A stretch of DNA of 64,000 nucleotides from a virus. The stretch lies in the UHGV virus genome UHGV-0037280. One strand, given 5' to 3'. The notes beneath the pieces are model-generated. The model saw only the letters and a list, made by a program, of their open reading frames with translations, was not told where the DNA came from and ran no database searches. How positions within the stretch are numbered: position 1 is the first letter of the stretch; every line of letters starts with the position of its first letter. Position numbers and translations under genes: made by a program. This document shows, piece by piece, positions 3,801 to 46,910 of this stretch.

Positions 3801-4589
3801 TTACTGTGCCGCTTTGTTTAATTCATCAAGAACAGAATCAGGAACCAAAGCGGCAACTGCGCTGGCTGTGCTGACCTTATTTGCTGATGCTTCCGCAAGC
3901 GCGGTACCGATAGCATGGTTATAAGCAGTTATGGCTACGTTGGCGCTTTCATTCGCTCGTTCATACTGCTGTTGTAACGCAGTTGTGGGCGCTGTTGTCT
4001 GGTTGAAAACAACCCCAAACTGTTCAGTTGCTACTTTCAGAGATTCAATTTGCTCTTCTGTTAGTGCTGGTGGGGGAGTGGCAGTGCCGCCGCCTGAACC
4101 AGAGCCTGACGAGCTTCCTGAGCCAGTGTTAAGGGTCTGGTTAATCTCCCCCATAGCAGCGACTAAACTTGATGTATTAAGCGCGTTTACAGCGTCCTCA
4201 AGCGATTTAGTAATAGTCACATCACCAATGGCAATAGAGATCGGCAGTTCTGATACTTCTCGCTCATTAGCACGACAGTAAACATCCCAACCAATATCGA
4301 GTTGAAGGAGCATTGACAGATCAGCATAACCAGCCAACAGGTCCGCGTGCTTAGTTGCCAGTTCTCCAATGTTCGTTAAGCCGGTTGTGGTTGTTCTGAT
4401 CGTTGAAACATAGCTGGTAATAGTGTCGGGATAGACAATTGTATCCAGAATTAATCCGGTCAATTCTTCTGCAAGCAGTTTTGCTGTGTTAGCACTGTTT
4501 CGTGCCGATGTTATGGCACCAGGTGTTTTCATCCCACCGGCGGCGGCCAATTTTTTATATGCGGATAACTGGTAGTCTTTTTCCAGCAT
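3801..4589 (-). CDS. Hypothetical protein with Gly/Ser-rich linker
   Basis: Start at MLEKDYQL with AGGAG 6 nt upstream; GSGSSSGSGSGGG linker. Confidence 0.6.
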   Translation of the reverse strand: MLEKDYQLSAYKKLAAAGGMKTPGAITSARNSANTAKLLAEELTGLILDTIVYPDTITSYVSTIRTTTTGLTNIGELATKHADLLAGYADLSMLLQLDIGWDVYCRANEREVSELPISIAIGDVTITKSLEDAVNALNTSSLVAAMGEINQTLNTGSGSSSGSGSGGGTATPPPALTEEQIESLKVATEQFGVVFNQTTAPTTALQQQYERANESANVAITAYNHAIGTALAEASANKVSTASAVAALVPDSVLDELNKAAQ

Positions 4590-4597
4590 GATATCTC

Positions 4598-4882
4598 CTA
4601 ACTTACCTGAACCAGGCCGTCTCCGGACGCTACGGTAGATCCGCATGAAACAGGGTCACCAACGCATACGATCCCTTTACCATTGACGGTAAACCATGCC
4701 CTGGTTGATATAGCTTGCCCACCGTGCGTACTGTTTCCATCGGTATGCTGTGCATATTGCTTACCATCAACTAACACTTCGACTCCGTTGACTTTAAGTA
4801 GTGGTTCACTCTCTACAGGAGGCCTGGATGGGAATCCTCCGTGCCCCGAACAAATGCTGTCTTTTGTTGCAATACTTGCCAC
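4598..4882 (-). CDS. PAAR-like small protein (possible spike-tip protein), GTG start
   Basis: 94 aa with GDPVSCG and repeated HGG motifs typical of PAAR domains; start codon is GTG. Confidence 0.5.
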   Translation of the reverse strand: MASIATKDSICSGHGGFPSRPPVESEPLLKVNGVEVLVDGKQYAQHTDGNSTHGGQAISTRAWFTVNGKGIVCVGDPVSCGSTVASGDGLVQVS

Positions 4883-4962: not shown

Positions 4963-4979
4963 ATTGCTCTAATAAATAT
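4963..4979 (+). promoter_or_regulatory. C1 repressor operator (ATTGCTCTAATAAATAT)
   Basis: 16/17 match to P1 C1 operator consensus ATTGCTCTAATAAATTT; upstream of the hrdC-dmt gene string. Confidence 0.6.
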
Positions 4980-9571: not shown

Positions 9572-9647
9572 GCCGGTTTAGCTCAGTTGGTAGAGCGCCT
9601 GCCTTGTAAGCAGGATGTCAGCGGTTCGAGTCCGTTAATCGGCACCA
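9572..9647 (+). tRNA. tRNA-Thr (anticodon TGT)
   Basis: Acceptor gccggtt/aatcggc, anticodon stem cctgc/gcagg with loop ctTGTaa, T-loop ttcgagt, CCA encoded. Confidence 0.9.
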
Positions 9648-35363: not shown

Positions 35364-36557
35364 GTGACCTGGGACGATCACAAGAAGAATTTTGCTCGCC
35401 TGGCGCGAGATGGTGGTTACACCATCGCACAGTATGCCGCCGAGTTTAATCTTAACCCTAATACCGCACGTCGTTATCTCCGTGCCTTCAAAGAAGACAC
35501 CAGGACAGCGGACAGCCGCAAGCCAAATAAGCCAGTCAGGAAGCCTCTAAAAAGCATGATCATTGATCACGCTAATGATCAACGTGCATGTGATCACATT
35601 GTGGCTGAAATGGCTGAAAAACAAAGAGTTAATGCTGTTGTCAGTGCCGCAGTCGAGAACGCTAAGCGCCAAAATAAGCGCATAAATGATCGTTCTGATG
35701 ATCATGACGTGATCACCCGCGCCCACCGTACCTTACGTGATCGCCTGGAACGCGACACCCTGGATGATGATGGTGAACGCTTTGAATTCGAAGCTGGCGA
35801 TTACCTGATAGATAACGTTGAAGCGCGGAAGGCCGCGCGCGCTATGTTGCGTCGGTCCGGGGCCGATGTTCTGGAAACCACTCTTCTGGAAAAGTCTCTT
35901 TCTCATCTCCTTATGCTGGAGAACGCCAGGGATACGTGTATTCGCCTGGTGCAGGAAATGCGCGATCAGCAAAAAGACGATGATGAAGGTACTCCGCCTG
36001 AATACCGTATCGCGAGCATGCTAAACAGCTGTTCCGCGCAGATAAGCAGCCTGATCAACACCATTTACAGCATCCGGAATAACTATCGAAAAGAAAGCCG
36101 GGAGGCGGAAAAGCACGCTTTATCTATGGGGCAAGCTGGCATTGTTAAGCTGGCATACGAACGAAAGCGTGAAAATAACTGGTCAGTGCTGGAAGCGGCT
36201 GAATTCATCGAGGCGCATGGAGGAAAAGTGCCTCCCCTGATGCTGGAGCAAATCAAAGCCGATCTGCGTGCTCCTAAGACCAATACCGATGATGAGGAAA
36301 ACCAAACAGCCGTCGGTGGCCCTTCTCTTGAAGATCTGGACAAAGTTGCGCGAGAACGGGCCGCCAACCGCCGCGCCGATGCCGCATTGTGGATTGAGCA
36401 GCGTAGGGAAGAAATCGCCGATATCGTTGATACAGGCGGTTATGGAGATGTTGATACTGAAGGTGTATCAAACGACCCATGGCTGGAACAAGACCTGGAC
36501 GAAGACGAGGAGGAAGACGAAGAAGTTACCCGCAAGCTATACGGGGATGATGATTAA
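35364..36557 (+). CDS. pacA: Terminase small subunit PacA (pac-site recognition)
   Basis: GTG start; 397 aa starting [19 protein letters not shown]; contains the pac hexamer cluster; acidic C-terminus. Confidence 0.85.
35557..35717. other. pac packaging site: 7 TGATCA/G hexamers in two clusters (4 + 3)
   Basis: TGATCA at 35558, 35566, 35577, 35592 and TGATCG/TGATCA at 35687, 35699, 35711; each carries a GATC site. Confidence 0.75.
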
Positions 36558-38041
36558 TGGCCAGAAGTTGCGTAACGGATCCACGTTGGCGCGAGCTGGT
36601 GGCGCTATATCGTTATGACTGGATTGCGGCCGCTGATGTTTTGTTCGGCAAAACACCTACCTGGCAGCAGGATCTGATTATTGAGTCTGTGCAGGAACAG
36701 GGTAGCAAGACATCTGTTTCGTCTGGCCACGGTACCGGGAAATCAGACATGACTTCTATCATGATCATGTTGTTCATAATCATGTATCCCGGTGCCCGCG
36801 CCATTATCGTTGCGAACAAAATTCAGCAGGTAATGACCGGTATATTCAAGTACATCAAGATAAACTGGGCTACTGCCACCAGCCGTTTTCCATGGCTTGC
36901 TGATTATTTTGTTCTGACAGAAACCGCTTTCTATGAGGTTACTGGTAAAGGTGTATGGACTGTAGTACCGAAGGGCTTTCGTCTGGGAAGTGAAGAAGCT
37001 CTCGCCGGTGAACACGCAGATCATCTTCTGTATATTATCGATGAAGCCTCCGGTGTCAGTGATAGAGCTTTCGGTATCATCACCGGTGCTCTTACCGGAC
37101 AGGATAACCGCATCTTATTGCTGTCACAGCCTACACGCCCAAGCGGCTATTTCTACGATACACACCATAAACTGGCCAAGCGTCCTGGTAACCCTGATGG
37201 CGTTTATACGGCGATCACGCTTAACAGTGAGGAATCACCGCTGGTAACGCCAGCATTTATCAAAATGAAGCTGGCGGAGTACGGCGGGCGTGATAACCCT
37301 ATGTACATGATTAAGGTACGCGGCCTATTCCCTAAATCACAGGATGGCTTCCTTCTTGGACGTGATGAGGTTGAACGTGCAACGCGGCGGAAAGTTAAGA
37401 TTGCCAAAGGATGGGGCTGGCTTGCATGTGTGGACGTTGCTGGTGGTACGGGACGGGATAAGTCAGTTATCAATATCATGATGGTGTCCGGCCAGCGAAA
37501 TAAACGCCGTGTAATCAACTATCGTATGCTGGAATACACAGACGTTACAGAAACGCAGCTTGCCGCCAAAATTTTCGCAGAATGCAATCCTGAGCGATTC
37601 CCAAATATCACCATAGCGATAGACGGCGATGGCCTGGGTAAAGCAACGGCGGATCTGATGTACGAGTATTATGGTATTACCGTACAGCGTATACGCTGGG
37701 GTAAAAAGATGCATAGCCGTGAAGATAAGAGCCTGTACTTTGATAAACGTGCTTATGCCAACGTTCAAGCCGCAGAGGCCGTAAAATCTGGTCGTATGAG
37801 ACTGGATAAGGGTAATGAAACTATTGAGGAAGCGTCGAAAATCCCTGTAGGGATTAACTCCGCAGGTCAATGGCGGGTGATGACTAAGGAAGACATGAAG
37901 AAAAAGCTCAACCTGCACTCACCAGACCATTGGGATACATATTGTTTCGCTATGCTGGCGGATTATGTTCCCCAGGATGAGGTGCTAAGCGTCGAAGACG
38001 AAGCGCAGGTTGATGAAGCTCTGGCATGGCTTAATGAATAA
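36557..38041 (+). CDS. pacB: Terminase large subunit PacB
   Basis: 494 aa; Walker A-like GHGTGKSD; directly follows pacA. Confidence 0.85.
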
Positions 38042-38043
38042 AC

Positions 38044-38060
38044 ACTTGCTCTAATAAATT
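38044..38060 (+). promoter_or_regulatory. C1 operator (ACTTGCTCTAATAAATT) upstream of icd-ant module 1
   Basis: 15/17 match immediately after pacB stop. Confidence 0.55.
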
Positions 38061-38190
38061 GTGATTTTTGACTGCCGATGTTACATTGAACCTGACATCT
38101 TGCGCCTTGAGGCATTTTCGGTTTATGCTTATCAGGCACCTCATTAAAACGGGTGCCGGGATTGAGACCCCGGATAATGTCAAAGGCGAC

Positions 38191-38216
38191 ACAGACGCCG
38201 AAAGCGTCTTTTTTTT
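38191..38216 (+). terminator. Intrinsic terminator (stem gacgc/gcgtc, T8)
   Basis: gacgc cgaaa gcgtc followed by tttttttt. Confidence 0.55.
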
Positions 38217-38265
38217 GTGTCATGCCATCGCACAGCCATACGTAGCGTTTAGCTCAGAGATCAAT

Positions 38266-38345
38266 GGTAGTGCTGGCTGGGCTGCCGAAAGGCAGGCCGG
38301 TTCCCTTTGACGCCGGTAGTCTCAACCCAGTCAGTGCTACCGCCA
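38266..38345 (+). ncRNA. Candidate c4-like antisense RNA of immunity module 1 (tRNA-like end ACCGCCA)
   Basis: 10-bp terminal stem ggtagtgctg/cagtgctacc followed by GCCA; internal cctttgac (38304-38311) is perfectly complementary to gtcaaagg (38383-38390) overlapping the icd SD. Confidence 0.4.
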
Positions 38346-38401
38346 TTGAGATTGAGACCTCACGCGGTAGCTCCTTAACTTAGTCAAAGGAGGCTGCCAT
38401 T

Positions 38402-38623
38402 ATGGCTACTATCCCTACCCCAACTCATCCTGAATTTATCTGGCGCTTTTACTCCTGCCAGAAACGTCACTATCACTTCGTTATCGCAACAACAGAAGAT
38501 GAGGCACGTTCTCAGCTTCCGGATGCTCCCTGCATTTTCTCCGCACGCTTTTCTACTGACTCGCGCAATTCTCTCAGTTACTGGTGCCTCCCTGTTAACG
38601 CTTCTGTTCAGGAGGGGCTATGA
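38402..38623 (+). CDS. icd: Icd-like small protein (73 aa)
   Basis: 73 aa, start 11 nt after AAGGAGG, stop overlaps ant start; layout as in P1 immI. Confidence 0.55.
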   Translation: MATIPTPTHPEFIWRFYSCQKRHYHFVIATTEDEARSQLPDAPCIFSARFSTDSRNSLSYWCLPVNASVQEGL

Positions 38624-39732
38624 GAACGTCATTAGTCACCCGTGAAGAGATGATCGAGGCAATTGAACAGCACACAATCTGTATCAGCACCAGGGATATT
38701 CCCGGTGTTATAGCCAATTACTTCATGATCACCAAACAACTCTACAGGAGAAAGGACAAGAACGCGGTTCACCGTATCCTGCTGTCTGATATCCGCGAAT
38801 ACCTGCTCGAACAGGGGCATCTGAATTACGCAACCGTCGCAGCCGAAACACGCAAGGAGGCACACAGAATGAAAGCTACTAACGTTAAATCAGAAAAAGT
38901 TCATGCACCTTCAGTTCAGGAATCAGAGCTGGTGGTTGTTCAAAATCAGCCTGATGAAATTCCCGTTCTGGAATGGCAGGGAGTACGCGTCGTAACGACC
39001 GAAACTCTTGCTAAGGGGTATGGAACCGAAACTAATAACATCAAAGTTAACTATACGCGTAATGCTGATCGCTTTGAGGAAGGTAAACATTACTTTCTAC
39101 TAACTGGTTCAAAATTAAGAGAATTGAAGGACAAGGTTACTCAAAGTAACTTAGTCGCACCGCGAGCAAAGCACCTCACTCTCTGGACGGAGCGTGGCGC
39201 AGCCCGCCACGCTAAAATGCTCGAAACCGATCAGGCATGGGCATTCTTTGAAAAACTGGAAGACAGCTACTTCCGGCAAAAAGAACAGCAACCGGTTGCA
39301 ATCCCCCAGACGCTTCCAGAAGCTCTGCGCCTGGCTGCCGAGTTGGCTGAACAAAAGCAGCTACTGGAACAGAAGGCCCACCAGCTAAATCAACAACTGG
39401 TGGCCGCAGCCCCCAAGGTCGATTTTGCCGACCGGGTATCAGTAGCTAAAGGGATCCTGATTGGGAATTTTGCAAAGGTTGTTGGACTTAAGCAAAACGC
39501 GCTGTTTGCCTGGTTACGGGAGAACGGCATCCTGATTGCGTCCGGCGGACGTAAAAATGTGCCGTTCCAGCAGTACATCACCGCGGGGTATTTCACGGTG
39601 AAAGAAGTGGTGCTGGATGATGAAGATGGCTACCAGATACGGTTGACGCCTCAATTAACGGGTAAAGGCCAGCAGTGGTTAACTCGCAAGCTACTTGATG
39701 CTGGCTTGTTAAAACCGGTGGCGGCTGAATAA
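38620..39732 (+). CDS. ant: Antirepressor Ant (Bro-N/ORF6N-like centre + KilA-C-like C-terminal domain)
   Basis: 370 aa; C-terminal VDFADRVSVAKGILIGNFAKVVGLKQNALFAWLRENGIL typical of phage antirepressor C-domain. Confidence 0.7.
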   Translation: MRTSLVTREEMIEAIEQHTICISTRDIPGVIANYFMITKQLYRRKDKNAVHRILLSDIREYLLEQGHLNYATVAAETRKEAHRMKATNVKSEKVHAPSVQESELVVVQNQPDEIPVLEWQGVRVVTTETLAKGYGTETNNIKVNYTRNADRFEEGKHYFLLTGSKLRELKDKVTQSNLVAPRAKHLTLWTERGAARHAKMLETDQAWAFFEKLEDSYFRQKEQQPVAIPQTLPEALRLAAELAEQKQLLEQKAHQLNQQLVAAAPKVDFADRVSVAKGILIGNFAKVVGLKQNALFAWLRENGILIASGGRKNVPFQQYITAGYFTVKEVVLDDEDGYQIRLTPQLTGKGQQWLTRKLLDAGLLKPVAAE

Positions 39733-39764
39733 TGGAAGAATGCCCGGTTGATGCCGGGCATAAT

Positions 39765-40616
39765 TTATTGCGCGCTTTCGGGGTTGTCGTTTACTGGCTG
39801 CCCCTTCTTGGTTTTACGGCTGCGCGTAACTGATGCGGCTGACTTAACCTTTTTCTCTTCGCGAGTGATGGCAATTTGTTTTTTTACATTTTCAATATCT
39901 GCCAGGCGATATATTTTTGCTTGCGGCCAGCGGTCGCAGATGATCGGTTCTATGGAGTCATAAAGGCTAAATTTTGCTTTTTCGAATTCACCGTTGATGA
40001 TAATTCCATCACGGAGAGTTTCATCGCAGATAAACACGCCACACAGTGGCACATGGTAACTAACTGATTTACCATCATTGTAGTTAGGGCTACTGGAAAT
40101 GTAGTGGACGCGCAGCATTGTTTCGCTAAAGCCGTGTACGCGCATACGGAATTTTTCATCCTCCGGGTACTGCTTCATTAGCTCTTTTGTTGCTTCCAGG
40201 TTCTCTATGTATTTCGCACTGTGCTCATTGATCCCCGCGCTTTTCTGGATGCGAATGTCCTTATCAATCAGATGAATAATGCGGCCAGCGGTCATGTTGA
40301 CGCTGTTCACAGCTTCTGTCTGATAAGTTGTAACCTTACGCACACCGCGAAGGATGTTAGGCACTGGATATAAAATAGTCTTTGGGATATTGAGGTCTGG
40401 GTACTGTTCCAGTTCCCGCGCCATTAAAGTCCATTTATCAATTTCAGCCTGAATGCTGTCCGTTTCTTTGAACGGCAGAACGACAACCGGGCGAACAGGA
40501 CGACCGTCGCTGGCGGCATCAACGTGTTGGGCGCGTGCAACAGCTTTTTTTAGAAAGAGATCCCTGAAGCTGACGAACTCCTGGTACAGTTGTTCGCCGT
40601 AGACATAATTTATCAT
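39765..40616 (-). CDS. c1: C1 repressor of lytic functions
   Basis: 283 aa starting MINYVYGEQLYQEFVSFRDLFLKK; coi immediately upstream; operators nearby. Confidence 0.9.
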   Translation of the reverse strand: MINYVYGEQLYQEFVSFRDLFLKKAVARAQHVDAASDGRPVRPVVVLPFKETDSIQAEIDKWTLMARELEQYPDLNIPKTILYPVPNILRGVRKVTTYQTEAVNSVNMTAGRIIHLIDKDIRIQKSAGINEHSAKYIENLEATKELMKQYPEDEKFRMRVHGFSETMLRVHYISSSPNYNDGKSVSYHVPLCGVFICDETLRDGIIINGEFEKAKFSLYDSIEPIICDRWPQAKIYRLADIENVKKQIAITREEKKVKSAASVTRSRKTKKGQPVNDNPESAQ

Positions 40617-40710
40617 TGATCCTCCTCCAGAATTGACATGGCCAACAACTCACAGCGGATTACACTGGGAGTTGTTGGCCACCATTATAGAAGGATCCAA
40701 CGAAAATAAT

Positions 40711-40727
40711 AGATTTATTAGTGCATT
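40711..40727 (-). promoter_or_regulatory. C1 operator-like site between coi and c1 (14/17)
   Basis: agatttattagtgcatt is the reverse complement of AATGCACTAATAAATCT. Confidence 0.5.
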
Positions 40728-40936
40728 TATTGTGAGTCTGGCTGGTTAGTGGCCATGAGATATTCGATTGTGTCAGTGAGATCATCCAGGTCGTCTTGGG
40801 TGATGCGGTACTCCTGATTGGATATCTTTGAGTAGTGTTCAGCAATGGCGCGGGCAGCGTCGGTTTCGGCGGGGTCTACAGATAAAGCGTTAGAGCAATG
40901 TCTAACGTCGTCGATGGTTGGTGGAATGAAAGCCAT
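40727..40936 (-). CDS. coi: Coi, C1 inactivator
   Basis: 69 aa acidic protein directly upstream of c1 on same strand. Confidence 0.75.
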   Translation of the reverse strand: MAFIPPTIDDVRHCSNALSVDPAETDAARAIAEHYSKISNQEYRITQDDLDDLTDTIEYLMATNQPDSQ

Positions 40937-41174
40937 AATTATGCCTCACTGTATTGACAACACAGAGCCTGAAGCTCTGACCTACTGTTTCACCCATGAT
41001 CCATGCTGGGGTAATCTAACAACATTGCGCTGTGTGTAAGATGAGCAATGCATAGCTGTAATGCCGTTGTATAAGGTTTCCCTGTTTGCTCATTTCCTTC
41101 TGAGCCGCTCTACAACGCTGAAGACACATTAAATAGTGAATCCAAAGTCGTATTACGAAACGGCGGCAAAACTA

Positions 41175-41191
41175 TAATTTATTAGAGCAAT
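41175..41191 (-). promoter_or_regulatory. C1 operator (reverse complement ATTGCTCTAATAAATTA)
   Basis: 16/17 match; part of operator cluster upstream of coi-c1. Confidence 0.6.
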
Positions 41192-41257
41192 TGTCAAACA
41201 ACTATGAAAAACAATCCAGTTTTTGGCTGGTGGAGTGGGATTTTTCTCTCAAAATTT

Positions 41258-41274
41258 ATTGCTCTAATAATTCT
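41258..41274 (+). promoter_or_regulatory. C1 operator (ATTGCTCTAATAATTCT)
   Basis: 14/17 match; 44 bp from loxP. Confidence 0.55.
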
Positions 41275-41317
41275 TGATTTTTATGCGCAGCTGGACGTAA
41301 ACTCCTCTTCAGACCTA

Positions 41318-41351
41318 ATAACTTCGTATAGCATACATTATACGAAGTTAT
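41318..41351 (+). other. loxP site (34 bp)
   Basis: Exact ATAACTTCGTATA GCATACAT TATACGAAGTTAT. Confidence 0.95.
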
Positions 41352-41540
41352 CTTAAGGGTTATTGAACATGATTAATTTACCTGTAAATCCATACAGTTC
41401 AATACCTTATCAGGTCAAATAGTGATCACTTGATCATTTGATCAAGGTTGCGCTACGTAAAATCTGCGAAATGTTGGCAGTGTTAGTGCTCCAGATTTCG
41501 CGTAGCGCACTTAGCACCACCAATCAATCAGAGGTGAAAA

Positions 41541-41762
41541 ATGGGATATTCAGCTGCTAAAGTGTCCACTCATATTGAGCTTGAGAAAAACCGTGGTTAC
41601 TGGCGGGCAAAAGGGTTTGATCGTGATAGTTGTCAACTGTCATTATCGCGCGGTGAAGAGAAAATAGAACGCACGCGCGGTCGCTGGCGTTTCTATGACG
41701 AGAACCATAAACAGGTAAAGGCAGAGCCGATCCTGTACACTTTACTTAAAACCATTATCTGA
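41541..41762 (+). CDS. Small ORF upstream of cre (73 aa)
   Basis: ORF track; precedes cre by 8 nt. Confidence 0.35.
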   Translation: MGYSAAKVSTHIELEKNRGYWRAKGFDRDSCQLSLSRGEEKIERTRGRWRFYDENHKQVKAEPILYTLLKTII

Positions 41763-41769
41763 GTGTTAA

Positions 41770-42801
41770 ATGTCCAATTTACTGACCGTACACCAAAATT
41801 TGCCTGCATTACCGGTCGATGCAACGAGTGATGAGGTTCGCAAGAACCTGATGGACATGTTCAGGGATCGCCAGGCGTTTTCTGAGCATACCTGGAAAAT
41901 GCTTCTGTCCGTTTGCCGGTCGTGGGCGGCATGGTGCAAGTTGAATAACCGGAAATGGTTTCCCGCAGAACCTGAAGATGTTCGCGATTATCTTCTATAT
42001 CTTCAGGCGCGCGGTCTGGCAGTAAAAACTATCCAGCAACATTTGGGCCAGCTAAACATGCTTCATCGTCGGTCCGGGCTGCCACGACCAAGTGACAGTA
42101 ATGCTGTTTCACTGGTCATGCGACGGATCCGAAAAGAAAACGTTGATGCCGGTGAACGTGCAAAACAGGCACTGGCGTTCGAACGCACTGATTTCGACCA
42201 GGTTCGTTCACTCATGGAAAATAGCGATCGCTGCCAGGATATACGTAATCTGGCATTTCTGGGGATTGCTTATAACACCCTGTTACGTATAGCCGAAATT
42301 TCCAGGATCAGGGTTAAAGATATCTCACGTACTGACGGTGGGAGAATGTTAATCCATATTGGCAGAACGAAAACGCTGGTTAGCACCGCTGGTGTAGAGA
42401 AGGCACTTAGCCTGGGGGTAACTAAACTGGTTGAGCGATGGATTTCTGTCTCTGGTGTAGCTGATGATCCGAATAACTACCTGTTTTGCCGCGTCAGAAA
42501 AAATGGTGTTGCCGCTCCATCATCCACCAGCCAGCTATCAACTCGCGCCCTGGAAGGGATTTTTGAAGCAACTCACCGATTGATTTACGGGGCAAAAGAT
42601 GACTCTGGTCAGCGATACCTGGCCTGGTCTGGACATAGTGCCCGTGTCGGTGCCGCGCGAGATATGGCCCGAGCCGGAGTTTCTATACCGGAGATCATGC
42701 AAGCTGGTGGCTGGACCAACGTAAATATTGTCATGAACTACATTCGTAACCTGGATAGTGAAACGGGGGCAATGGTGCGCCTGCTGGAAGATGGCGATTA
42801 G
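41770..42801 (+). CDS. cre: Cre tyrosine recombinase
   Basis: 343 aa starting MSNLLTVHQNLPALPVDATSDEVRKNLMDMFRDRQAFSEHTWKMLLSVCRSWAAWCKLNNRKWFPAEPEDVRDYLLYLQARGLAVKTIQQHLGQLNMLHRR; adjacent loxP. Confidence 0.95.
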   Translation: MSNLLTVHQNLPALPVDATSDEVRKNLMDMFRDRQAFSEHTWKMLLSVCRSWAAWCKLNNRKWFPAEPEDVRDYLLYLQARGLAVKTIQQHLGQLNMLHRRSGLPRPSDSNAVSLVMRRIRKENVDAGERAKQALAFERTDFDQVRSLMENSDRCQDIRNLAFLGIAYNTLLRIAEISRIRVKDISRTDGGRMLIHIGRTKTLVSTAGVEKALSLGVTKLVERWISVSGVADDPNNYLFCRVRKNGVAAPSSTSQLSTRALEGIFEATHRLIYGAKDDSGQRYLAWSGHSARVGAARDMARAGVSIPEIMQAGGWTNVNIVMNYIRNLDSETGAMVRLLEDGD

Positions 42802-42818
42802 CCGTTCATTTGCTCTTT

Positions 42819-42835
42819 ATTGCTCTAATTATTTG
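42819..42835 (+). promoter_or_regulatory. C1 operator (ATTGCTCTAATTATTTG)
   Basis: 14/17 match between cre stop and next gene. Confidence 0.5.
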
Positions 42836-42851
42836 ATATTTATGGTTACAC

Positions 42852-43163
42852 ATGCGGAAGGATTTCAAAATAGACGGAAAATATGTGGTGCTGTCTGTAA
42901 GCTCTCAAATTCAGTCACCATCTGTCATTGTCACCGTAAAGTTGAGCGATAGGATGCCTGATATCGACTCGATATCTGTTGCGTTCCCCGTTAAAAGCAT
43001 GCGGAGTGCTGAACATTTTGTGATGAATGCAACGGAGGAGGAAGCACGGCGCGGGCTTACTAGAGTGATGGCGGAATTTGGCGAACTCCTGGGTAAGGTA
43101 AACAATGCCCTTTCAATCAGTTCAGCAAGATCCAAAGCGTTAACAGCTTCCATGATGAAATAA
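42852..43163 (+). CDS. Hypothetical protein downstream of cre (103 aa)
   Basis: ORF track; ATG 42852. Confidence 0.5.
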   Translation: MRKDFKIDGKYVVLSVSSQIQSPSVIVTVKLSDRMPDIDSISVAFPVKSMRSAEHFVMNATEEEARRGLTRVMAEFGELLGKVNNALSISSARSKALTASMMK

Positions 43164-43188
43164 AAAAAAGCCTGGCAAGGAGCCAGGC
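43162..43188 (-). terminator. Intrinsic terminator for minus-strand transcripts
   Basis: aaaaaaaa gcctggc aagga gccaggc; U-run on minus strand. Confidence 0.5.
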
Positions 43189-43378
43189 TGCACAAAAGAG
43201 CGGGGTTGTATTCCGCATCCAATCAATCAAGAAGGAGTATAGCACACAGGTACTGAAGAGAAAAAATGTGATTCGCGATAGATAAAATAGCCACTATTGT
43301 TATAATTAATTGCCATAATTGAGTTATGGCTTTAGTCAACTACGAAGACATTGCCATTATAGACTCCGTGACATCATT

Positions 43379-43402
43379 GGCGGCCGAAAGGCCGCCTTTT
43401 TT
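43379..43402 (+). terminator. Intrinsic terminator (ggcggcc gaaa ggccgcc T6)
   Basis: 7-bp GC stem, GAAA loop, tttttt. Confidence 0.6.
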
Positions 43403-43404
43403 AA

Positions 43405-44463
43405 TCATTCAGCCGCCACCGGTTTTAACAAGCCAGCATCGAGCAGTTTACGCGTCAACCACTGTTGGCCTTTCCCCGTTAATTGAGGCGTCAGCCGTAT
43501 CTGATAGCCATCTTCATCATCCAGCACCACTTCTTTCACTGTGAAATATCCGGCGTTTATGTACTGCTGAAACGGTACATTTTTACGTCCGCCGGACGCA
43601 ATCAGGATGCCGTTCTCCCGTAACCAGGCAAACAACGCGTTTTGCTTAAGCCCAACAACCTTTGCAAAATTTCCAATCAGGATCCCCTTGGCCCCTGATA
43701 CCCGGTCGGCAAAATCGACTTTAGGGGCGGCGGCCACCAGCTGCTGATTTAGCTGGTGGGCTTTCTGTTCCAGAAGTTGCTTTTGTTCAGCCAGCTCGGC
43801 AGCCAGGCGCAGAGCTTCGGGGAGTGTTTGGGGAATCACTGGAGAAGCAGTGCTAGCCTGCTGCAATTCCTCCAGTTTGTCGATCAGCGAACGGCGGACC
43901 GCTTTTGACTCGCGCGCGGCAACTCTCAGGGCTTGTTTGTAGGTCATGGAGATAGTTTCAGATGTTGTGTTGTTTAATTTTTGCACTACGAAAATTTCGT
44001 AGTACTCACCATCCAGTTCATCCTTAACTCTGGCAATAAAATCATTATTGCGAACTGGTTTTTCGCTACATAATTTCCGCGCTTCATTGACCATCTTTAA
44101 CAGCGTCTGGCTGTCGATTGTGTCTCCGGTGTTGGGGATAGCATCCATGGCCGTTGCTGGTGTGGTTGCTGTCAAAGGCTTTGTAACGACAACATCTGGT
44201 TTGCTTGCTTTCATTCTGTGTGCCTCCTTGCGTGTTTCGGCTGCGACGGTTGCGTAATTCAGATGCCCCTGTTCGAGCAGGTATTCGCGAATATCAGACA
44301 GCAGGATACGGTGAACCGCGTTCTTGTCCTTTCTCCGGTAAAGTTGTTTGGTGATCATGAAGTAGTTGGCAATAACACCCGGTATATCCCTGGTACTGAT
44401 ACAGGCAGTGTGCTGTTCAATTGCCTCAATCATCTCTTCACGGGTGACTAATGACGTTCTCAT
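43405..44463 (-). CDS. Antirepressor paralog with swapped central module
   Basis: 352 aa; N-terminal about 85 aa and C-terminal about 150 aa near-identical to 38620-39732 product, central region unrelated. Confidence 0.7.
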   Translation of the reverse strand: MRTSLVTREEMIEAIEQHTACISTRDIPGVIANYFMITKQLYRRKDKNAVHRILLSDIREYLLEQGHLNYATVAAETRKEAHRMKASKPDVVVTKPLTATTPATAMDAIPNTGDTIDSQTLLKMVNEARKLCSEKPVRNNDFIARVKDELDGEYYEIFVVQKLNNTTSETISMTYKQALRVAARESKAVRRSLIDKLEELQQASTASPVIPQTLPEALRLAAELAEQKQLLEQKAHQLNQQLVAAAPKVDFADRVSGAKGILIGNFAKVVGLKQNALFAWLRENGILIASGGRKNVPFQQYINAGYFTVKEVVLDDEDGYQIRLTPQLTGKGQQWLTRKLLDAGLLKPVAAE

Positions 44464-44681
44464 AGTCCCTCCTGAGCAGAAGCGTTAACAGGGAGGCACC
44501 AGTAACTGAGAGAATTGCGCGAATCGGTAGAAAAACGGGCGGAGAAAATGCAGGGAGCATCCGGAAGCTGAGAACGTGCCTCATCTTCTGTTGGTGCGAT
44601 AACGAAGTGATAGTGACGTTTTTGACAAGAATAGAAGCGCCAGATGAATTCAGGGCGTGCGCAAGGATTGGCATTAACCAT
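44460..44681 (-). CDS. Icd-like small protein, second copy with divergent N-terminus
   Basis: 73 aa; identical to copy 1 from PEFIWRFYSC onward. Confidence 0.55.
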   Translation of the reverse strand: MVNANPCARPEFIWRFYSCQKRHYHFVIAPTEDEARSQLPDAPCIFSARFSTDSRNSLSYWCLPVNASAQEGL

Positions 44682-44719
44682 AGTTACGGCCTCACTAACA
44701 GGTTTAACAACCTGCTACC

Positions 44720-44790
44720 CGCTGCTAAACAGGTGGCAGGACGTGACGGGGTTAGCAGACTGGCGTTAGTGAAACCAGCAGGCCGAAGCC
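44720..44790 (-). ncRNA. Candidate c4-like antisense RNA of module 2
   Basis: Minus-strand segment tcactaac (plus-strand gttagtga 44765-44772) is perfectly complementary to the SD-containing leader (plus-strand 44692-44699) of the second icd copy; boundaries approximate. Confidence 0.3.
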
Positions 44791-44998
44791 TCCCCATCAC
44801 GCCCCACCATAATTTGGGCGTAACGCGGTTTTACGGACACAAAAATACCGCAATATCGGATATCTGCGGTTGTCCACACTAACATTCAGGCTGCTAAACC
44901 CGGTCGCAGAATTTGCTACGACGTAGGAACTATAAGCCTGAACAACAGGAAGATCAATAGTCTGGCGTCCAATAGTAGTTTATTTGTTTCAATAAATC

Positions 44999-45015
44999 AA
45001 ATTTATTAGAGCAAC
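44999..45015 (-). promoter_or_regulatory. C1 operator (reverse complement GTTGCTCTAATAAATTT)
   Basis: 16/17 match. Confidence 0.6.
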
Positions 45016-45959: not shown

Positions 45960-46910
45960 TTAATCAATAAATACACGGAATGGCTCAAGCATCCCTTCAG
46001 GATCTTTATCCTCGTCACCAAGTGATATTAGTCTTCTGGCGAGTAGTTTTACATCATCATCATCTTTAATGAAGCCAACCTGATCATTATTAAAATAGAT
46101 ATCGATTATTTTTAGGATTTGCTCTTGTGTAAAATGATTGAATTTTAATAACTTTGCTACAACTCGATGTGTTGTGGCAAAACTGCCTGAGCGGCGTAAT
46201 TCATCTATAGTGAAATTAACTTCCATTTCCGCTAAGTTACTGGCTTGAGGAAAGTGCTCGCCTATAAACTCTGATAAGCGGGCATAGATATGTGGTTCTG
46301 AATCTTTCTTCTTTTTCCACTCGTACTTCAAATACTCATTCATATCATCCTTTATAAAGGCACTTTTATAATCACCATCTTCAGTTATAATGTATATATC
46401 CTCTCCGTTTGGTATCGCTTTTAGCAAACACTCCCAATTGACTGCATCACCATATGATTTATTTTTACCCGGAGGGTTGCCAAGATCGAATCGGCGTTTC
46501 CCCTTTTCTATTGTTTCATCATCAGCCTCTATCTTAGACGCTGCATCAAAAATCCTTTTAATTACAACATCGGCAGCTAAAGACTCTTCTTTAAATAAGT
46601 TCTGTATATCGGTAATAATTTCATTCTTTAGCCGACTAGCTTCTATAACCTTATCATTAAATAGTGAATGTTTTTCATGCTGTCTGAAAATCTGTGGTAG
46701 CGCGGGCTTGTAGTCTTTTGCAATTTCCTTTATGGTTTCAGAGAGAACTTTAGAACGATTTCTCCAGAACTCATTCACTAAAAGTTCTGGCAACCAAAGT
46801 TTTAAACGACCATATTGATGTAAGGCAAATACTTTATCTAGCTCATCTAGTTTATCCTTACCCATTCGATAAAATTCTAAATATAGATTTGTATCAATAA
46901 AAACATTCAT
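45960..46910 (-). CDS. PIN-like nuclease-domain protein (316 aa), AT-rich
   Basis: N-terminus MNVFIDTNLYLEFY with Asp at position 6, later acidic cluster ITEDGDY, consistent with a PIN-like fold; AGGATG SD; strongly AT-rich versus flanks. Confidence 0.65.
   Translation of the reverse strand: MNVFIDTNLYLEFYRMGKDKLDELDKVFALHQYGRLKLWLPELLVNEFWRNRSKVLSETIKEIAKDYKPALPQIFRQHEKHSLFNDKVIEASRLKNEIITDIQNLFKEESLAADVVIKRIFDAASKIEADDETIEKGKRRFDLGNPPGKNKSYGDAVNWECLLKAIPNGEDIYIITEDGDYKSAFIKDDMNEYLKYEWKKKKDSEPHIYARLSEFIGEHFPQASNLAEMEVNFTIDELRRSGSFATTHRVVAKLLKFNHFTQEQILKIIDIYFNNDQVGFIKDDDDVKLLARRLISLGDEDKDPEGMLEPFRVFID

Follow-up and report, generated by a model that had tools for sequence, protein, structure and literature searches.

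Two candidate supernumerary immI-type operons with different antisense-RNA keys flank immC-lox-cre in a P1-like phage-plasmid

Introduction

How many antisense-RNA immunity operons can be stacked in one phage-plasmid, and would each of them answer only to its own RNA? This question is raised by UHGV-0037280, a stretch of viral DNA of 64,000 nucleotides (nt), the whole of which is called the window here. It is a P1-like phage-plasmid, and comparison with P1 showed two insertions on the two sides of the c1-lox-cre segment. Module 1 lies on the plus strand between pacB and c1 (38045-39761), and module 2 lies on the minus strand between c8 and a mat-like gene (43379-45015), at the place that ref occupies in P1. 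We read both insertions as supernumerary, complete operons of the P1 immI type that flank immC-lox-cre, and based on the sequence comparisons described below we put the probability of this reading at about 85%. The system as such is already known, and all defining features of P1 immI that we tested for were found, except the downstream kilA-repL. What is new is two further members of this system and one new allele combination.

In P1 and P7, C4 is an RNA of approximately 77 nt, which is processed from the operon transcript in an RNase P-dependent manner and blocks the translation of icd and hence the expression of ant, while the Ant1/Ant2 complex inactivates C1. Four base changes give P1 and P7 different c4 keys and thereby make the two phages heteroimmune, and this textbook example of RNA-encoded specificity has so far been handled as a two-allele case. 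The mechanism reportedly goes back to work by Citron and Schuster in 1990 and 1992, Biere et al. in 1992, Riedel et al. in 1993, and Heinrich et al. in 1995. It is partly restated in a review (PMC12197685) and in the feature notes of the P1 record itself.

Results

Each insertion carries a C4-family RNA, four matching target sites and an icd-ant pair

The complete order in both modules is C1 operator, promoter, a1-b1 leader, c4 RNA, a2-b2, icd, and ant1/ant2. An earlier note on this DNA had recognized two Icd-like open reading frames (ORFs) of 73 amino acids (aa) overlapping the start of an antirepressor gene, and this was confirmed. icd-1 (38402-38623, plus strand; NCBIfam NF033153, 49.9 bits) and icd-2 (44460-44681, minus strand, ATG at 44681; also matched by NF033153, and 82% identical to P7 Icd) both overlap the following gene by ATGA, which suggests that icd and ant are translationally coupled. 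The product of ant-1 (38620-39732, plus strand, 370 aa) has an ORF6N and a KilAC domain, and that of ant-2 (43405-44463, minus strand, 352 aa) has a P1/P7-type centre and KilAC. Nested Ant2-type starts could be read at 38869 in ant-1, preceded by AAGGAGG, and at 44214 in ant-2; the start at Ant M84 is conserved together with the AAGGAGG site. The bounds that had been proposed for the modules (38266-39732 and 43405-44790) do contain the ORFs, but the modules are longer, each of them beginning at a C1-operator-like site.

The structured segment that had been pointed out ahead of each icd proved, by covariance search and by folding, to belong to the C4 family. Rfam RF01695 (threshold 45 bits) matched at 38260-38347 on the plus strand (C4-1, 75.4 bits, E 6.6e-13) and at 44729-44814 on the minus strand (C4-2, 70.0 bits, E 1.4e-11), in both cases over the full length of the model (1-87). 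In the minimum free energy (MFE) folds and the centroid folds of both RNAs, the second hairpin presents b′ in its loop, and a′ stays unpaired before the closing stem. C4-1 had an MFE of -46.5 kcal/mol and a z of -5.1, with b′ in a hairpin loop, and C4-2 had a z of -5.4.

The 8-mer complementarities described earlier (cctttgac/gtcaaagg in module 1 and tcactaac/gttagtga in module 2) are present at their places, but they are only part of the pairing. Each C4 has, besides the 8-nt b′ match, a 7-nt a′ that matches a2 in the leader, and in both modules the a and b targets are repeated upstream of c4 as a1 and b1. In module 1, the b′ core CCTTTGAC (38304-38311) pairs with GTCAAAGG at 38383-38390, and this b2 overlaps the Shine-Dalgarno sequence GGAGG of icd; a′ (GTCTCAA, 38319-38325) lies in an unpaired stretch and matches a2 (TTGAGAC, 38352-38358), the whole target region being 38352-38393. 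The upstream copies are a1 (TTGAGAC, 38162-38168) and b1 (GTCAAAGG, 38179-38186), all on the plus strand. In the RNA, b′ of C4-1 is CCUUUGAC and a′ is GUCUCAA. In module 2, where everything is on the minus strand, the b′ 8-mer TCACTAAC (44772-44765) pairs with GTTAGTGA at 44699-44692, and this b2 overlaps the ribosome site of icd; a2 is TTAGCAG (44728-44722; target region 44692-44728), and a1 (44897-44891) and b1 (44883-44876) were mapped on P1. The b (8-nt) and a (7-nt) matches are spaced just as they are in the P1 annotation, with a2 about 30 nt upstream.

C4 keys co-vary with their targets in related elements

Loci around Icd homologues were collected from IMG/VR, GTDB genomes, plasmids, and phages (the scan of genome contigs gave 7 loci), and each C4 was parsed for a′ and b′ and for the best complementary sites up- and downstream, with G-U pairs allowed; an alignment by MAFFT misplaced hairpin 1 between scaffolds. 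Every C4 in the first locus collection had matching a1, a2, b1, and b2 (98 hits in 13 classes, among them the two of the window itself and a few loci that entered the collection twice). Among the IMG/VR loci, which overlap the first collection, 159 of 160 were matched, and the single failure was a truncated locus. Two Stx phages had still other key sequences and followed the same matching rule, and in all, approximately 260 related modules in plasmids and viral contigs fell into approximately 20 specificity classes, in which RNA and targets changed together and no genuine mismatch was seen. The complementarities are conserved in related elements in the sense that they co-vary with their targets, and this co-variation is the strongest evidence that they are probably functional. 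Together with the Rfam C4 matches and the full set of a1/b1/a′/b′/a2/b2, it upholds the proposal in the earlier note of a c4-type antisense control with two specificities.

We counted at least 10 b′ and at least 7 a′ alleles. The P1 scaffold has 6 of these b′ and 2 of these a′ alleles, and 11 of the 12 combinations that they could form were found, which suggests that a′ and b′ reassort freely. A third C4 scaffold (b′ UUACCUUGGACG, a′ AAGGCCAA; loci L015-L046, L097, L099, and L101-L103) was common at the pacB-side slot, about 150 nt upstream of icd; its a2, b1, and b2 each pair via a single G-U wobble, and its a1 is fully Watson-Crick.

The two keys are predicted to act separately

Modules 1 and 2 differ at every a and b site, and the C4 scaffold of module 1 also differs from that of module 2. 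Loop-only duplex energies for b were better by 5-10 kcal/mol for the cognate than for the non-cognate pairs; for the module 1 target, the loop-only duplex gave -12.7 kcal/mol with the cognate RNA versus -2.8 to -6.8 kcal/mol with non-cognate ones. Loop-only values were used for C4/leader duplexes because whole-RNA RNAduplex was uninformative, as the C4 stems get unfolded in it. Paired a and b targets of either key were not found elsewhere in the 64 kb. Since a′ and b′ are distinct and each is matched by its own leader alone, each RNA should silence its own module only, and we infer that the two modules are orthogonal.

Module 2 combines a P1 and a P7 key, and module 1 has an IsrK-type leader

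The annotated P1 record lists Oc4 (Op51), P2c4, P1c4, a1, b1, a 77-nt c4, a2, b2, icd, ant1, and ant2. The comparison with P1 immI showed that the control region of module 2 is collinear with the annotated one and aligns with it almost base for base between the P1c4 promoter and the start of icd. The promoter of module 2 that is homologous to P1 P1c4/P51b (TTGATC-17-TATAGT) lies at 44957-44929 on the minus strand, and upstream of it only the core of the Oc4 operator is conserved between module 2 and P1; this Oc4 (Op51)-like C1 operator (45015-44999, minus strand, 1 mismatch) aligns with the annotated P1 Oc4. The a1/b1 leader follows at 44876-44935 and is matched by the c4-a1b1 RNA family at 44883-44935 (Rfam RF03163, 53.2 bits vs 46.7), and a mature 77-nt C4-2 is predicted by homology at 44808-44732, all on the minus strand. 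A GC-rich hairpin (43379-43396) stands just 3′ of ant-2. Over this stretch, module 2 and P1 show few differences. Among them is a 2-nt swap that a1, a′, and a2 have in common (TTGACAG to TTAGCAG, and its complement in the C4-2 RNA), and one base of the closing stem also differs. By alignment with the c4 of P1 and P7, b′ of C4-2 is UCACUAAC (P1 type) and a′ is CUGCUAA (P7 type). With P1 b′ (CACUAAC) and P7 a′ (CUGCUAA) joined in one RNA, the key of module 2 is a hybrid.

Module 1 begins with a C1-operator-like site (38045-38061, plus strand; CTTGCTCTAATAAATTG, 2 mismatches to the P1 operator consensus), which is homologous to the module 2 operator (27-nt high-scoring segment pair). A putative promoter, TTGCGC-18-TATGCT, was picked by eye at 38100-38129 on the plus strand, at the same relative position as the promoter before isrK in Stx phage L095. 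It would serve an IsrK-like leader RNA (38136-38214, plus strand; Rfam RF01394, 60.2 bits vs threshold 50). Both a1 and b1 lie inside this isrK match, and its intrinsic terminator (38193-38209 plus a T-run of T8, plus strand) separates them from c4. A further hairpin terminator is found between ant-1 and the 3′ end of c1 (39740-39761, plus strand). An isrK that carries the a1/b1 of the following C4 was seen in the window (38136-38214) and, with other keys, in the Stx phages L095 (1800-1875) and L096 (approximately 1805-1880). IsrK thus appears to be a c4-module a1b1 leader with a terminator of its own. Because it carries a1/b1, a decoy role is a natural hypothesis, and IsrK could serve as a decoy for C4.

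The inverted arms record past exchange of ant segments

Two arms are shared by the modules in inverted orientation. Arm 1 (38429-38876 / 44207-44654; 448 nt, 94.4% identical, ungapped) runs from Icd codon 10 (PEFIW) to Ant residue 86, and arm 2 (39301-39733 / 43404-43836; 433 nt, 91.0%) encodes the last approximately 143 Ant residues, the KilAC C-terminus. Between the arms, Ant-1 and Ant-2 show no alignment: the centre of Ant-1 is an ORF6N domain, and that of Ant-2 aligns with P7 Ant1. The alignment agrees with what had been noticed before, that is, near-identity from PEFIW through the Ant N-terminus and over the C-terminal part of Ant around unrelated centres. Past exchange of ant segments between the modules is evident from this mosaic.

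It had also been remarked that recombination between the arms would invert the segment between them. In its full form, this explanation says that the arms are a recombinational switch, with RecA-dependent inversion of c1-lox-cre, or a swap of Ant centres from one c4 control to the other, giving two functional isomers. The geometry is indeed right, as inverted arms with 94% and 91% identity bracket c1-lox-cre, and the mosaic ant genes show past recombination among modules. But inversion itself found no support: the simulated junction (pacB 3′ end, module 1, and c8/cre) was covered by at least 80% in 0 of 843 matching plasmid records, all 843 ended their junction match at the end of module 1, and the inverted orientation of c1-lox-cre was therefore not seen among these related plasmids. 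The 6-9% divergence of the arms also argues against frequent exchange within one genome, and we consider such a switch improbable. A chimera of ant-1 centre, arm, and c8 had looked inversion-like and matched 34 records, but it was rejected after one of them was checked: the order there was mat / module / c8-cre-lox-coi-c1 / module / pacB, and the mat-side slot held an ant-1-type allele. With the normal order and the other ant allele in this record, the chimera matches are no evidence for inversion.

Two and more modules recur in plasmids and genomes of Escherichia

The 7.3-kb two-module layout was found in one piece in 46 plasmid records (Escherichia coli, E. albertii, and E. fergusonii); of 5426 complete E. 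coli genomes, 34 have it in one piece as well. In the closest relative, NZ_CP142921.1 (97.1% identical), the canonical immI site is occupied by a third module and followed by kilA and repL, and the three C4 RNAs of this relative have three different keys; kilA-repL follows the third, canonical module only. By position, the canonical immI site falls outside the window, and the element of this window probably carries three modules in total. With the first arm as query, 1040 places were found in 680 plasmids, approximately half of which had only one P1-type copy and the rest one to four. Across plasmids, the pacB-side slot held IsrK-scaffold or third-scaffold keys, and the mat-side slot held various P1-scaffold keys.

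The two insertions could also be decaying duplicates, non-functional and without a present role, which were left behind when the element recombined with other P1-like elements or with lambdoid prophages. Such an origin would fit the location of the canonical immI with kilA-repL elsewhere in relatives, the pseudogenised mat-side ant in some of them, and one locus (L066) without c4. However, all module ORFs of the window are intact, both C4 RNAs are full-length, the operators and the P51b-like promoter are conserved, and the four target sites per module are perfectly matched and co-vary across approximately 20 classes. So many coordinated sites that still match would need selection, and decay is in our judgement quite improbable. 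An assembly artefact, with the second ant copy produced by mis-joined reads of one immI locus, has nothing beyond the approximately 450-nt repeats in its favour and is refuted by the recurrence of the layout in databases (the 46 plasmid records and 34 complete genomes come from unrelated studies and three Escherichia species, and scaffold, specificity, and Ant centre are not the same in the two copies), which leaves it a negligible chance and settles the corresponding doubt of the earlier note.

Several observations weigh against our reading of the insertions as complete, separately keyed immI-type operons. kilA-repL is absent 3′ of both modules, where ant-1 is followed by c1 and ant-2 by c8/cre. 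A consensus promoter scan of module 1 called none. In 3 of the 11 relatives examined, the mat-side ant has decayed while c4 and icd are kept, so Ant function is not always kept there. Some co-resident modules share b′ and differ in a′ only. For key avoidance, with a chance identity of approximately 0.19-0.31, the same-scaffold co-resident pairs make too small a sample: there were 4 in IMG/VR, including a tandem of identical class, and a single pair each in the closest relative and in L102.

Some observations on single loci are added here. The truncated or pseudogenised mat-side ant genes are at 5906-6721 in L098, 5902-6192 in L100, and 5901-6704 in L104; a decayed ant beside an intact c4/icd is what one would expect of elements that retain the RNA (immunity) and can do without the antirepressor. 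In L066 (an IMG/VR contig, approximately 2350-2503), pacB-like sequence is apparently fused to the b2/icd start, leaving an icd-ant unit without C4. In L017 (2159-4310), near the contig end, a c4-icd-ant unit of the third scaffold is directly duplicated in tandem (period 1566 nt, identical keys), which may be real or an assembly effect. L102 has a third c4-icd-ant module beyond mat (9583-11010), with the b′ of its neighbour and the other a′. RefSeq calls a 39-aa "ash family protein" coding sequence that overlaps the C4 gene and a2 in L001 (6364-6483, corresponding to approximately 38264-38383 of the window) and likewise over the C4 gene in L094, L100, and L104; at these C4 sites it is probably a spurious protein call.

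Discussion

Proposed mechanism and its consequences

By analogy with P1, a C4 RNA of approximately 77-80 nt would be cut from the operon's own transcript, and its b′ and a′ would pair with b2 and a2 and so occlude the ribosome site of icd. As ant would be translationally coupled to icd, the pairing would leave the cell without antirepressor, and if no antirepressor is made, C1 repression, i.e., lysogeny, holds. A resident with several c4 types would then silence incoming relatives of several immunity types, and an incomer with several differently keyed ant genes would escape residents that lack one of the keys. If this set rule is true, the resident wins only when each ant module that the incomer brings finds its match in the c4 set of the resident. 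Taken together, the loci could represent a reassorting two-site immunity RNA code, with 2-4 stacked keys per element, the set rule, and an IsrK decoy that titrates its own C4. We offer this joint reading tentatively, as a possibility with the odds somewhat against it; if it is true, the element of the window, with its hybrid P1-b/P7-a key and its IsrK-type key, is a player in an arms race.

The locus and its relatives provide many natural, freely recombined a′/b′ keys, several of them stacked per element. With this natural series, one can ask how many mismatches break c4 repression and whether a′ or b′ alone sets the specificity. It also bears on the immunity types that matter for co-existence and exclusion among P1-like plasmids, which often carry resistance genes in E. 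coli and Salmonella.

Comparison with known systems

Both modules share with P1/P7 immI the C4 RNA, the four targets, the inferred icd-ant coupling, the nested Ant1/Ant2 starts, and the upstream C1 operator. They differ from it in location, as immI of P1/P7 adjoins sim/kilA-repL, whereas the modules described here flank immC and are without kilA-repL. Module 2 has a control region nearly identical to that of P1 and departs from both phages in joining the P1 b′ with the P7 a′, while module 1 has another C4 scaffold, the IsrK-type leader, and the ORF6N-type Ant centre.

Small RNAs also control immunity in P4 (CI RNA, with seqA/seqB/seqC) and the antirepressor in P22 (sar/ant immI), and the likeness extends to target copies up- and downstream of the RNA gene. 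P4 CI terminates the transcription of replication genes, and sar of P22 is a true cis-antisense RNA; the C4 RNAs described here have no sequence homology to either of them (for both systems, cf. the discussion in PMC4825925).

Module 1, in which isrK and its terminator are followed by C4 and then by a coupled ORF-antirepressor pair, is also comparable with isrK-orf45-anrP of the Salmonella prophage Gifsy-1. In Gifsy-1, the short IsrK, a member of an Hfq-binding RNA family, activates the translation of the downstream ORF-antirepressor in trans, and a processed RNA of approximately 80 nt lies downstream of IsrK (PMC4825925). Pairs of isrK and C4 occur in Stx/lambdoid phages as well, and in the Stx phages checked isrK carries a1/b1 as in module 1. 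Unlike in Gifsy-1, the coupled ORF of module 1 is an icd of P1 type, fused behind 9 isrK-type codons, and the module resides in a P1-like plasmid prophage with a C1-type operator.

Extra ant/icd genes have been described in RCS47, pTZ20_1P, and pSvP1, where they are inserted either between pacB and c1 or in the variable region that follows cre/c8 (PMC6906374), and in the annotation of RCS47 they stand at the same insertion sites as here. A second c4-icd region has been described in the D6-like pYU39_89 (PMC6799933). In the accessible literature, the extra modules of these four elements are recorded as gene content only, and no analysis of RNA keys, of orthogonality within one element, or of a hybrid P1-b/P7-a key was found there.

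Gene order around immC-lox-cre

Module 1 is preceded by pacA (35364-36557) and pacB (36557-38041). The bracketed segment (39765-43163) comprises c1 (39765-40616, minus strand), coi (40727-40936, minus strand), a canonical loxP (41318-41351), cra (41541-41762, plus strand), cre (41770-42801, plus strand), and a c8-like ORF (42852-43163, plus strand). In L102, a higB/higA-like toxin-antitoxin pair (4072-4737) replaces cra between lox and cre. Scanning the window with the P1 C1-operator consensus at no more than 3 mismatches gave 16 matches versus 0.24 expected, which is consistent with a genome-wide C1 regulon as in P1; examples of such operator-like sites are at 4963, 8809, 25282, 41175, and 58238. 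Just past module 2, a gene at 45960-46910 (minus strand) encodes a PIN-domain protein of 316 aa (PIN_12/PIN_8), which may be a defence or accessory gene, and in the relative it adjoins a very large N6-methylase gene.

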